Positions 2,727 through 23,179 of a stretch of 31,938 nt of DNA are shown here, piece by piece. Under the pieces are notes generated by a model, which was given only the letters and a program-made list of their open reading frames with translations, was not told the DNA's origin and searched no databases. The stretch is from UHGV virus genome UHGV-0224535. The stretch is one strand, 5' to 3'. Each line of letters starts with the position of its first letter. The first letter of the stretch is position 1. The translations under genes and the position numbers were made by a program. The stretch is from a virus.

Positions 2727-2743
2727 AAAGCGTGATCTACCCC

Positions 2744-2790
2744 CGCAAAGTTTACAAAATGGCATTGTTTCAGCAGTGCCATTTTGTTAT
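2744..2790 (+). promoter_or_regulatory. candidate sigma70-like promoter (TTGTTT, 17 nt spacer, TATAAA) overlapped by a perfect 10-bp inverted repeat CAAAATGGCA / TGCCATTTTG
   Basis: Read directly in the 100-nt gap upstream of the 2829 gene; the half-site ACAAAATG recurs at 18967, 22567, 24476 and 31287. Confidence 0.4.
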
Positions 2791-2828
2791 AAAGAAGCTG
2801 AAGAGAGAACGATGCGGAGGGTAGAAAA

Positions 2829-4703: not shown

Positions 4704-4876
4704 ACGAGATCGAAGACGGCATCTATTTGCATAAGGTATTTAACATCGTCTATTTACTTAAAGGTAATAAGGTGATGATAAGACCTGATGACGATCCACA
4801 TTGGGAATCAAGCGGCATGGATCGCGAACACATGCAAACATTGCTTGATAATGGCCTGATATACAGAAAGCAGTAA
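4700..4876 (+). CDS. small protein, paralog of the 4521 gene; GTG start overlapping the upstream stop (GTGA)
   Basis: Similarity to the 4521 protein reaches the GTG codon, supporting a non-ATG start; below the track cutoff. Confidence 0.5.
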   Translation: MNEIEDGIYLHKVFNIVYLLKGNKVMIRPDDDPHWESSGMDREHMQTLLDNGLIYRKQ

Positions 4877-4898
4877 AGCCGTATTTGTTGGGGGTAAT

Positions 4899-5126: not shown

Positions 5127-5191
5127 CGCCGTATTTGTAGAGCGCAAACAAACAGATTAAAATATTTCCTAACAATGCGAAATTGTAATTA

Positions 5192-5215
5192 CCCGGCCCC
5201 GCGCCGGGTTTTTGC
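5192..5215 (+). terminator. rho-independent terminator (CCCGGC-CCCGC-GCCGGG followed by TTTTT)
   Basis: Read directly; separates the early block from the lysis cassette. Confidence 0.6.
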
Positions 5216-16233: not shown

Positions 16234-16698
16234 ATGCCTATCAAGGGGGTTAAACGCGTCCGTGAGAGATTAAAGCAGGAGCTAAAGGAAATCACCGATA
16301 AAAAGACGCACGAAGTTTTATGGCGCGTCGGTATGCTGGCTGGTGGCTTCGCGGCTAATATGACGCCAGTCGATACGGGCTTCTTAATTAACAGTCAGTT
16401 CCAGTACATAGGGAACACGGCGGACGGTATGCAATTACGCCTGGGATATACGGCCCGCTACGCTGAATGGGTGCACAATATGCCGGGTACATTAAAAGGC
16501 CAGCCGCGCGAAGATTTCGGCAAAACGAATAACCTTTCAGATTTCGGACCGAAACAGGTAATTAGTTTTGGTGGTGGTACTGGAAAGGGTAATTATTGGG
16601 ATCCAAATGCGGAGCCTGGATTCTTGCGTAAGGCATTCGAAGATCCTAACCACGCCGATGATATTTATAAAGAAATTGTAGAAGGTTACAAAGCATGA
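16234..16698 (+). CDS. neck / tail component protein (HK97 gp10-like)
   Basis: 154 aa; position; overlapping stop and start with the next gene. Confidence 0.5.
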   Translation: MPIKGVKRVRERLKQELKEITDKKTHEVLWRVGMLAGGFAANMTPVDTGFLINSQFQYIGNTADGMQLRLGYTARYAEWVHNMPGTLKGQPREDFGKTNNLSDFGPKQVISFGGGTGKGNYWDPNAEPGFLRKAFEDPNHADDIYKEIVEGYKA

Positions 16699-17626: not shown

Positions 17627-18304
17627 ATGATCCATGTTCGTACAGGGCAATTTGCGGCTGTGGTGAACGGTAAGCGCTATGAGTTTAATCCTTGCTTTGC
17701 TGCGATGGCTAAAATCGGCAACGATAGTGAGCTTGTCGAATATTTCGCACTTATCCACGGCAGCAAATACCCTTCACGATTACCTACAGATCCAGACCTC
17801 CGCAAACGCATTATGGCACGGTGTTATGGTGAGATAGTGCAAACGTCAATGCGCATCCTGAAATGTTGCTCAGACGACGAAACAGGCCCGTTATTGGGCA
17901 AATGTAGGTTTACTCCTTCTGGTAAATTGAGACTAAAACCCGGACTGATGCCTACAAGTGATGTTATCACGCTGGCGCAACATTGCATGTACCACGGTTT
18001 AATTGGTGACGGGCCGGAAGAAGACACGGGCGCGATCCAGGAAGGCGAGTACAAGCCGACATTTGACGTACTTGAGTTTGTTTATTCTGCCGTTGCTCAC
18101 CTGGGATTGTCAGAATCAGAAGCATGGAATATGACAATGACCGGATACAGGGCCGCAGTGCGCGCTAAAACGCCGCCAGACGAAAGAAATGAAAGAAGTA
18201 GACCAAATGTTCACATAAATAAACGTGCTTATGACGAGCAAATGGAGGCCGCTAAAAAGGCACTGGAAAGAATGAAAAATAGCAAGCAAGAAAAAGCCCG
18301 GTAG
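17627..18304 (+). CDS. putative tail assembly chaperone (position of lambda G/GT)
   Basis: AGGTGA 6 nt before ATG 17627; sits between the major tail protein and the tape measure gene; no frameshift extension found. Confidence 0.5.
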   Translation: MIHVRTGQFAAVVNGKRYEFNPCFAAMAKIGNDSELVEYFALIHGSKYPSRLPTDPDLRKRIMARCYGEIVQTSMRILKCCSDDETGPLLGKCRFTPSGKLRLKPGLMPTSDVITLAQHCMYHGLIGDGPEEDTGAIQEGEYKPTFDVLEFVYSAVAHLGLSESEAWNMTMTGYRAAVRAKTPPDERNERSRPNVHINKRAYDEQMEAAKKALERMKNSKQEKAR

Positions 18305-18315
18305 ATCCGGGCGTT
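18291..18315. terminator. bidirectional hairpin (GCCCGG-TAGAT-CCGGGC) flanked by A5 on + and so T5 on -
   Basis: Overlaps the + gene stop (TAG in the loop); on the minus strand it is followed by a T-run, so it probably terminates the 18320..18733 gene. Confidence 0.5.
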
Positions 18316-18733: not shown

Positions 18734-18961
18734 AATCAACTCCTACCGCTTATTATGATTTGCTAAATTCTTCCTTTAACTTATTTATACACGCATATTG
18801 TTTATTTTTTAAGTGCTTTTAACATTTCTTCGATGAAATCCGCATAGCGTTCATGTTCGTTGGGGCGGTAGTTTGCGTTTTTCATTTTCTTGTCCCCTTT
18901 TGCTTCCTCCGGTTAATCCGGCCTTTTAAATCCATTTGCTCTATCCCTTCCCTTTAGCTTC

Positions 18962-19010
18962 TTTATACAAAATGTATTCGTTGAAATGAAGCCATTTTGT
19001 ATAAAATAGA
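18962..19010 (+). promoter_or_regulatory. candidate promoter for the tape-measure operon with inverted repeat ATACAAAATG / CATTTTGTAT and a TTGAAA / TAAAAT pair
   Basis: Read directly in the 300-nt divergent intergenic region. Confidence 0.4.
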
Positions 19011-19042
19011 GGCATACATCACATTCTGCATGAGGTTAAATC

Positions 19043-21386: not shown

Positions 21387-21413
21387 AAGGCCGCTATAAG
21401 CGGCCTTTATTTT
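21387..21413 (+). terminator. rho-independent terminator (AAGGCCGC-TATAA-GCGGCCTT followed by TATTTT)
   Basis: Read directly, 5 nt after the tape measure stop. Confidence 0.65.
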
Positions 21414-22266: not shown

Positions 22267-22422
22267 TTAGTTAAGCGCCCTCAGGAAGAAATCCCGGTAT
22301 TCATCATCCTTCGCGTTCATCATGAATTGACCGTATTTGAATGCGTCGTCGAAACCCTTAACAATTGCTACTTCCACTTGCTCGAATGCGTTGTTTAGCA
22401 TCACTACTACATAGCTACTCAT
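22267..22422 (-). CDS. hypothetical small protein (51 aa)
   Basis: GTGAGG RBS before the ATG; MSSYVVVMLNNAFEQVEVAIVKGFDDAFKYGQFMMNAKDDEYRDFFLRALN*; first gene of the minus-strand island. Confidence 0.45.
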   Translation of the reverse strand: MSSYVVVMLNNAFEQVEVAIVKGFDDAFKYGQFMMNAKDDEYRDFFLRALN

Positions 22423-22535
22423 TTTTGGGCCTCACTTGCTGGTACCGCTTTTCTTCTTGCTTCCTGTATACAGCTTGTTGCTTCATGTGTGAATCCATAT
22501 TGTAAACTAGCTATAATTCTTGTGATGAATATCTC

Positions 22536-22560
22536 ATTTTTCGCGTAGAAGCGCGTAAAG
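22536..22560 (+). promoter_or_regulatory. conserved 25-nt motif ATTTTTCGCGTAGAAGCGCGTAAAG (copy 2), upstream of the gpM-like gene; TATAAT-like element at 22513-22518
   Basis: Matches 10099-10123 at 21 of 25 positions; followed by TACAAAATGTAAC. Confidence 0.45.
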
Positions 22561-22592
22561 ATATATACAAAATGTAACTTACAGGAGGGGGT

Positions 22593-22946
22593 ATGCCGGA
22601 AGTGTTCAGATGGACACCACAGAGAAGCTACAGCGTAAACAGTGAGCCTAACGTGTCCGTTATCAAGCTGGGCGATGGCTATGAACAGCGCCAGACAAAA
22701 GGGATTAATCCACTACTTGACAGCTATACGCTGGTCTTTAAAGGTACGAGCGCCGGATGCGGTGACGCCGGAAACGTGGCGCTCCAGGTTGACGCATTTT
22801 TAAGAGCACGTTGCGCGGTCGAGGCGTTTTACTGGACGCCATCTACAGACGGAGTGAAAAGGCTTTTTGTATGCCGAAAGTGGAGCATGGCGAAAGACGG
22901 CCCGGTATGCACTCTGAATGCAACGTTTGAACAAGTTATCAATTAA
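22593..22946 (+). CDS. minor tail protein, lambda gpM-like
   Basis: 117 aa; ...KLGDGYEQRQ... and C-terminal FEQVIN resemble lambda M (remembered FEQVVN); sits upstream of the L/K/I/J set. Confidence 0.75.
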   Translation: MPEVFRWTPQRSYSVNSEPNVSVIKLGDGYEQRQTKGINPLLDSYTLVFKGTSAGCGDAGNVALQVDAFLRARCAVEAFYWTPSTDGVKRLFVCRKWSMAKDGPVCTLNATFEQVIN

Positions 22947-23145: not shown

Positions 23146-23151
23146 ACACTA

Positions 23152-23179
23152 CCCCGCGCGAAGCGGGGTTATTATTATT
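23152..23179 (+). terminator. rho-independent terminator (CCCCGC-GCGAA-GCGGGG followed by TTATTATTATT)
   Basis: Read directly. Confidence 0.65.

Follow-up and report, generated by a model that had tools for sequence, protein, structure and literature searches.

Genome context and accessory islands

The window (the whole 31,938-nt stretch of viral DNA analyzed here) corresponds to the late half of a temperate coliphage or prophage of the mEp021-like (mEpimmI) type. MagusPhagus, mEp021, mEp554 and other phages are 82-88% identical to it, and a prophage of E. coli 2017C-4173W12 is 93% identical. Positions 1 to ~160 share 94-96% identity with IS903B-like (IS5 family) ends found in thousands of plasmids; therefore, the window begins within an IS insertion in the prophage. 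The IS end is followed by about 25 small ORFs 3' of Q, and then by the genes for lysis, head and tail. Phages of the mEpimmI group have been described as non-lambdoid and dependent on Nus, and as having three nut sites together with N-like and Q-like proteins (PMC11893012). Ahead of the holin gene, the direct repeat GCCGTATTTGT occurs at 4871-4881 and 5127-5137, 256 bp apart, and its second copy overlaps a promoter candidate, TTGTAG-17-TAAAAT (5135-5163), about 30 nt before a strong terminator (5191-5209). This candidate and terminator could be a Q-dependent late promoter and a tR'-like terminator.

Four islands of minus-strand accessory genes break up the tail operon. Each is closed on its left by a bidirectional intrinsic terminator and on its right by one of the motif-bearing sites B, C, D and E, respectively (Table 1), so that a unit of terminator, cargo and cassette is repeated, with the terminator distal to the promoter cassette. 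A fifth site, A (2731-2793), is flanked by two plus-strand genes and lies at no strand switch. The island cargo includes a ParE-like toxin, a KilAC fragment and an exclusion-type lipoprotein, among others. Directly 3' of the leftward promoter candidate at site B is a small conserved ORF of 27 codons with an RBS (18803-18886, minus strand; MKNANYRPNEHERYADFIEEMLKALKK), which precedes a minus-strand gene of 139 aa.

The recurrent 8-mer and its surroundings

The 8-mer ACAAAATG occurs in 12 exact copies on the two strands of the window, where 2.20 would be expected, and none of 100 dinucleotide shuffles reached that number; an earlier note on this DNA had reported the motif at five sites, and both the sites and a frequency far above chance are borne out. 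In the 3,181 nt of non-coding DNA the excess is steeper, with eight copies against 0.22 expected and a maximum of three in 1000 simulations. ACAAAATG ranks second among the over-represented 8-mers of the window and first in phage mEp021 (17 copies versus 3.3 expected), where most copies are intergenic and spread over both arms, and where copies can point in both directions within one operon. Its density is 0.27-0.89 per kb in mEp021, the prophage and 31 mEpimmI-like IMG/VR loci (L001-L035), falling to 0-0.12 per kb among 49 relatives of the same tail protein that are more distant. ACAAAATG is thus a real, lineage-specific, promoter-associated motif. A scan of IMG/VR for the pair ACAAAATG-N18-CATTTTGT found no second phage group with the arrangement: the matches were site A or B of mEpimmI phages, the rest being contigs of unrelated context or composition. 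A similar scan for ACAAAATGGATTGA found at least five mEpimmI P_R copies, the other matches listed being chance or coding. A literature search for the motif and its extensions as strings matched unrelated primers only; no description of promoters, operators or late control in mEpimmI phages was found in the literature searched, nor one of their promoters, operators, morons or CRP sites in PMC11893012.

Four of the window copies lie outside sites A-E, one in the IS903B-like end and the others at start codons (Table 1). About ten different genes in these phages share the start context RBS-N-ACAAAATG; therefore, part of the 8-mer excess reflects a preferred translation-start context, apart from the promoter copies. 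The ATGs of the intergenic copies open ORFs of only 1-21 codons, which have no RBS and are not conserved. Two further sequences are in excess. AAAACCCG, the most over-represented 8-mer in the window (12 versus 1.4-1.7 expected; e.g., at 373, 5205, 9030 and 17935), has two copies in terminator arms and the others in coding sequence. GTTAATTA (9 versus 1.45 expected), which resembles the ArcA-box core, is also mostly coding, with one copy (31303/31305) just 5' of the tail-fiber gene RBS.

Table 1. Sequence elements of sites A to E and related features of the window
Feature	Position	Strand	Detail
Site A, CRP-like left half	2731-2741	+	CGTGATCTACC
Site A, upstream 8-mer	2754-2761	+	ACAAAATG at about -46 to -39; 3 nt 5' of -35-like TTGTTT (2765-2770)
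Site A, inverted copy and -10-like hexamer	2780-2793	+	CATTTTGT (2780-2787), end of 17-nt spacer; then TATAAA (2788-2793)
Site B, symmetric pair	18962-19005		ACAAAATG 18967-18974 (+); CATTTTGT 18993-19000 (-)
Site B, leftward promoter candidate		-	-35-like TTCATT (18990-18985); TATAAA (18967-18962)
Site B, rightward TATAAA	19000-19005	+	
Site B, weak CRP-like site	19008-19023		AGAGGCATACATCACA; ~60.5 nt 5' of predicted leftward start
Site C, leftward promoter candidate	22465-22503	-	ACAATATG (22503-22496), GA, TTCACA (22493-22488), 17 nt, TATACA (22470-22465)
Site C, CRP-like site	22521-22536		TGTGATGAATATCTCA; 9/10 core positions
Site C, exact 8-mer	22567-22574	+	ACAAAATG; 10 nt 5' of RBS of plus-strand gene at 22593; moderately conserved
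Site D, leftward promoter candidate	24416-24454	-	CCAAAATG (24454-24447), GA, TTGATC (24444-24439), 17 nt, TATATT (24421-24416)
Site D, CRP-like site and 8-mer	24465-24485		CGTGACGCAGATCACA (24465-24480); right half continues into ACAAAATG (24478-24485)
Site E, FNR-type box	31229-31242		TTGATATAAATCAA; perfect
Site E, minus-strand copy	31249-31256	-	CATTTTGT; 8-mer conserved, following plus-strand hexamer TATAAG not
Site E, CRP-like site and 8-mer	31269-31289		TGTAACACAGATCACA (31269-31284), overlapping ACAAAATG (31282-31289)
Bidirectional intrinsic terminators, left edges of islands	18296-18312, 21387-21407, 23151-23169, 30878-30898		
Start-codon contexts	15291 (+), 25219 (+), 24385 (-)		RBS-ACAAAATG
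Start-codon context, first minus-strand gene of island 3	24385-24392	-	GGAGGAGTTAACAAAATG; non-regulatory
8-mer copy inside IS903B-like end	39		ACAAAATG

The pairs of copies differ in arrangement from site to site. At A they belong to a perfect inverted repeat of 11 bp rather than the 10 bp noted earlier (ACAAAATGGCA / TGCCATTTTGT, 2754-2764 / 2777-2787), and at B the arms are also 11 bp (TATACAAAATG / CATTTTGTATA); the spacing of the inverted pair is 26 bp at both. Site C has a one-mismatch copy, CATATTGT, at 22496-22503. At D, CCATTTTGG lies at 24446-24454, and the 13-mer AGATCACAAAATG is identical at D (24473-24485) and E (31277-31289), consisting of the right half of the CRP-like site running into ACAAAATG. 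The copies at D and E are everted, with spacings different from those of A and B, and the geometry of E differs from that of the other cassettes. The earlier note had recognized these pairs, the start of the copy at C and the 13-mer at 24473, together with the first copy at B; its other positions shift, several of them by 2-5 nt, as the pair at A had been placed at 2749-2756/2778-2785, the second copy at B at 18994-19001, CCATTTTGG at 24451-24459, the pair at E at 31246-31253/31287-31294 and the second 13-mer at 31282.

The proposed association of the motif with promoters is also supported, with -35/-10-like hexamers at a fixed distance from it at A-D. From 5' to 3', the recurring layout opens with a CRP-like palindrome; ACAAAATG(G) then stands at about -45 to -38, directly against a -35 hexamer that is mostly weak, and a spacer (17 nt in every case compared) leads to a TATAnn -10. 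The 8-mer starts 33-34 nt 5' of TATAnn, and the -35-like hexamer follows 2-3 nt past the motif. This geometry is seen rightward at A, leftward at C and D, in both orientations at B, and again at the P_R candidate of mEp021. The hexamers read TTGTTT-17-TATAAA at A, TTCACA-17-TATACA at C leftward and TTGATC-17-TATATT at D leftward, the last being picked up independently by a promoter scan. Matches to the -35 range from 2-3/6 at A and B up to 5/6 at C and P_R, while T at -7 of the -10 is present at D-leftward, P_R (TATATT) and P_L (TAAACT) and absent at A and B (TATAAA) and C-leftward (TATACA). The spacer ends in the inverted copy CATTTTG at A, B and the P_L and nutR2 promoter candidates, and in a direct near-copy ending in TG at C and D (ACAATATG in the case of D leftward). 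The candidates aim at a plus-strand accessory gene at 2829 (A) and at minus-strand genes starting at 22422 (C) and 24392 (D). At E, a leftward promoter with GATATT (31206-31201) for the lipoprotein gene 30904..31152 (-) is a conjecture. A fully conserved plus-strand TATAAT (22512-22517) lies just 5' of the CRP-like site at C, and a conserved short dyad, TTTTTCGCGTAGAAGCGCGTAAAG (22541-22560), lies between that site and the ACAAAATG copy 5' of the tail gene at 22593.

Start sites here are predictions with an uncertainty of 1-2 nt. On that scale ACAAAATGG spans -46/-45 to -38/-37 at six predicted promoters and matches about 7/9 of the proximal UP consensus AAAAAARNR. In the literature this proximal subsite occupies -46 to -38, the extended -10 is TRTGn, and a UP element just 3' of the CRP site boosts class I activation (PMC4132738). 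In one cassette of mEp021, at 16543, the upstream 8-mer copy is inverted, which fits a minor-groove contact with an A/T tract better than an oriented regulator.

CRP-like palindromes (TGTGA-N6-TCACA) with at most one mismatch number four in the window versus 0.94 expected; sites C, D and E account for three of them, each with 9/10 core matches. The match is weaker at B, where relatives read AGAGACATAGATCACA, and A has a half-site that in relatives is a full, perfect palindrome (TGTGATCTTCATCACA, TGTGACTCGTATCACA); the half-site AAATGTGATCTA is identical to the CRP consensus half. The sites are 5' of the leftward promoter candidates and over the plus-strand -10/+1 regions. Relative to the predicted starts, their centers are at about -61.5 (A), -60.5 (B), -70.5 (C), -63.5 (D) and -82.5 (E), in agreement with class I CRP positions near -61.5, -71.5, -82.5 or -92.5. 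Site E also carries TTGATATAAATCAA at 31229-31242, a perfect FNR-type box by the FNR consensus. It is semi-conserved in relatives, and its center would be at -41.5 of the start predicted from GATATT, which suggests anaerobic control of the probable exclusion lipoprotein gene 30904..31152.

Early region and conservation in relatives

In mEp021, ACAAAATG is also found in early intergenic regions and in the leftward operon. The best promoter match of the early region is the P_R candidate TTGACT-17-TATATT, whose -35 is abutted by ACAAAATG and which lies about 40 nt 5' of the nutR1 boxA. The P_L candidate, TTGAYC-17-TAAACT, lies about 70 nt 5' of nutL and has CCATTnTG at the end of its spacer; conservation covers the motif and both hexamers, whereas the 5' half of the spacer is variable. 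A third copy, followed by TATACT, is situated about 20 nt 5' of the nutR2 boxA. With copies at the early promoter candidates of nutL, nutR1 and nutR2, the motif is therefore not late-specific. An alternative P_L, CTGACA-18-AATGAT, was rejected as its -10 is not conserved, and a Q-utilization site was likewise set aside, given the number of copies and their presence at early promoters. We also discarded an immunity operator of the lambda CI type: the 8-mer has no dyad and is present in a single copy each at P_L and P_R, where the conserved dyads are CTTGCATCATTGCAAG-like. The conserved dyads of the immunity region, CTTGCATCATTGCAAG and GTGACTTGCATCAAA (mEp021, L002, 11040-11062 and 11126-11141), are better candidates for the Rep021 operator than ACAAAATG. 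The repressor gene probably starts at an upstream ATG (MKTKWYDL...) that is near a TATAGG box, close enough for a leaderless mRNA.

When 22-28 distinct relatives are aligned, the motif and the hexamers stay conserved and the spacers change in part, a pattern that at C and D has the look of a promoter-type footprint. Plus-strand hexamers are almost invariant at B and C and degenerate at D and E, with A-11 or T-12 lost in many relatives. C2 and G8 of the 8-mer are the same in every variant listed from the alignments of B-E and P_L. A-rightward and B-leftward are obvious paralogs over about 80 nt, and D-left and P_R have 13 nt in common, so part of the recurrence is common descent rather than independent selection. 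Behind unchanged cassettes the cargo falls into unrelated clusters, nine at B, four at C and seven at D, and genes vary on either side of cassette A. Together with the CRP-like sites, the motif would make up a reusable promoter cassette, which most likely drives swappable accessory genes as well as early operons rather than late-gene restarts.

Lambdoid morons, as known from HK97, HK022 and lambda (bor/lom), are units of promoter, gene and terminator inserted in late operons. The islands resemble them in that minus-strand accessory genes of variable content have a promoter region on one side and a bidirectional terminator on the other, inside the tail operon. A classical moron is considered to carry a promoter of its own, whereas here the candidate promoter belongs to the conserved backbone and the cargo is exchanged, and four islands bear the same motifs, three of them with the full geometry.

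Possible roles of the motif

The reading that we prefer, tentatively and as something just short of probable, is that ACAAAATG is a UP-like and extended -10-like cis element of sigma-70 promoters aided by CRP. The layout is like that of class I CRP promoters, natural as well as engineered (PMC4132738), and on this ground ACAAAATG at -45 to -38 is read as a UP-like A-tract. The upstream copy would be an A-tract at the proximal UP-element subsite, in contact with the alpha subunit, and the copy in the spacer would supply a T-tract and TG in a TRTGn-like extended -10 that offsets a poor -35. In the back-to-back promoters of site B, one inverted pair 26 bp apart would serve both. Sites B, C, D and probably E would fire leftward into the minus-strand accessory (moron) islands, cassette A would fire rightward into an accessory gene block, and in the early region motif-marked promoters would lie 5' of nutL, nutR1 and nutR2. 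Promoter activity, start sites and the contacts of CRP and the alpha subunit are all things we infer from the DNA.

Among known systems, class I/III CRP-dependent sigma-70 promoters (lac P1; the CC(-61.5)/CC(-72.5) series, PMC4132738) share with these cassettes a CRP palindrome near -61, -71 or -82, a proximal-UP A-tract (the 8-mer being shifted 1-2 nt in the 3' direction from the consensus position, -46 to -38), a poor -35 and TG at the spacer end. They differ in that UP is normally a degenerate A/T run, whereas here the element is a nearly fixed 8-10-mer with invariant C and G that recurs inverted in the spacer, its TG sometimes one base out of register. Site E, with a perfect FNR box 41 nt 3' of the CRP-like site, resembles ansB-type promoters, which FNR(-41.5) and CRP activate jointly.

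Several features are at odds with a UP-like element. The fixed C2 and G8 are more specific than a typical UP subsite, the TG at B abuts TATAAA, one base off the canonical extended -10 register, and several -10 candidates (TATAAA, TATAAG, TATACA) are without T at -7. At A the inverted pair is conserved though a leftward promoter is neither needed nor conserved there. In addition, copies in either orientation lie 0-10 nt 5' of an RBS (window 22567 and 24478; mEp021 6066 and 12610; L246 8085), which is outside the promoter model. The fixed C and G, the conserved A pair, the register shift at B and the RBS-proximal copies are left unexplained, and so a dedicated regulator stays as a rival: a sequence-specific protein of phage or host, with the 8-mer as its genome-dispersed operator or activator site, an explanation we regard as possible though doubtful. 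It could repress when bound at -17, activate at -41.5 and block elongation 5' of an RBS. Dispersed sites of this sort have precedents in the asymmetric operators of P1 C1 and the "stoperators" of mycobacteriophage L5 gp71, which like ACAAAATG are short, non-palindromic and present in many intergenic copies in early and late operons, sometimes paired, and overlapping promoters or just 5' of genes. L5 stoperators are oriented, however, whereas no orientation bias is seen here, and the P1 and L5 sites are 13-17 bp, against 8-10 bp here with separate dyad-type operator candidates in the immunity region. Exact 8-10-mers at about 20 independent intergenic places argue for such a protein, as do the invariance of C2 and G8, the 11-bp arms at A that stay intact in every variant but one although the loop changes, the common 26-bp spacing at A and B, and the 8-mer center at -41.5, a classical activator position. 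Yet the site has no dyad and is variable in position and orientation, and the upstream copies of C and D show less conservation than the adjacent -35/-10 hexamers. Half-sites 26 bp apart would be on opposite faces of the helix, the shared spacing of the paralogs A and B is a single event, and at the symmetric B a single protein would have to occlude each promoter as well as activate it. The candidate put forward in the earlier note, an HTH-like protein at 23596..23844, is actually an 82-aa antirepressor fragment, with a KilAC (ANT) domain rather than an HTH. As the immunity region has other dyads (TTGCA-N4-TGCAA-like), a regulator would not be a CI-like repressor. Compared by eye with the consensus sequences of IHF, Fis, sigma-54, TyrR, PhoP, CpxR, OmpR and GntR-type regulators, the motif appears to fit none at more than one class of site. 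An unlikely variant has the cassette as a compact and symmetric bidirectional promoter switch of 60-90 bp that is a plug-in expression slot of the backbone, or the motif as the dispersed operator of a P1 C1-like global regulator in a phage that depends on Nus, N and Q. As a switch, the inverted ACAAAATG pair would work both ways, with the CRP-like site near -61 or -70 relative to the leftward promoter and covering +1 of its rightward counterpart, so that cAMP-CRP would activate the accessory cargo and silence the neighboring tail-gene promoter.

The earlier note had also seen all sites as gaps where plus-strand transcription restarts, possibly under a phage-specific promoter class. The motif is indeed specific to this phage group, but a role in restarting late plus-strand transcription after the islands, under a late activator, appears improbable. 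In its favor, CATTTTG on the plus strand is followed by TATAAA at A and B, with TATGAT and TGn at D, TATAAG at E, and TAAACT then TATAAT at C; the hexamers at B and C are those that hardly vary, and two loci (L022 and L012) that are non-homologous 5' of the fiber gene nevertheless have similar CATAATGTATAC and CGCATTGTAAAC after a terminator. Phage promoters of this kind include those with P2/186 Ogr/B sites (TGT-N12-ACA near -55) and Mu Mor/C dyads near -43. The likeness lies in a repeated element at a fixed distance 5' of weak-(-35) promoters in a temperate phage and in inverted repeats that flank the -35 region; but the P2 Ogr and Mu Mor/C elements are confined to late or middle promoters, and here the arms are 26 bp apart and antitermination is of the N and Q type. 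Against a late restart are the copies at early promoter candidates and in the leftward operon, the loss of A-11 or T-12 from the D and E hexamers, plus-strand -35 elements that are poor or absent, and CRP-like sites that overlap the predicted plus-strand starts. The best-conserved geometry at B, C and D is leftward, A is between two plus-strand genes, and the group has a Q-like antiterminator, which makes late plus-strand restarts unnecessary. Recombination linkers at module boundaries, with the motif kept for the exchange of accessory genes, seem to us quite improbable. Mosaic breakpoints do flank the A, B and E cassettes, and cargo differs behind an unchanged cassette, but the breakpoints are 20-60 nt from the 8-mer and not at it, the conserved block is 60-90 nt with promoter-like internal structure, and no mosaicism is seen at P_R and P_L, which also have the motif; the idea is in any case compatible with the promoter explanation and no true alternative to it. 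We think it very improbable that the inverted pairs act as an RNA hairpin or DNA cruciform. The 11-bp arms of A (perfect) and B would allow one, but 7 of the 13 pairs are invariant, a core T to C change in two B sequences breaks a pair and is uncompensated, the outer positions for the most part do not pair, and changes on both sides chiefly set the A paralogs apart from those of B. The upstream arm is 5' of the predicted start and would not be transcribed, no Rfam match was found in the window, and D and E have everted copies that are spaced differently.

In conclusion, a motif that is newly described marks the cassettes of a phage group that comprises common, prevalent temperate phages of gut E. 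coli, while the mechanism we favor, a UP-like and extended -10-like element in CRP-aided promoters, is itself of a known kind and brings no new principle. If the switch or dispersed-operator reading were true, the expression of swappable lysogenic-conversion genes would be tied to host physiology through CRP and, at the lipoprotein island, FNR. If the favored promoter model is true, promoters open to testing are at hand for the three early transcripts linked to nut sites and for the accessory islands, whose genes would respond to carbon source through CRP and to oxygen through FNR. The phage backbone would then keep fixed expression slots for exchanged cargo genes, and recognizing these slots may aid prophage annotation and the prediction of lysogenic-conversion gene expression.
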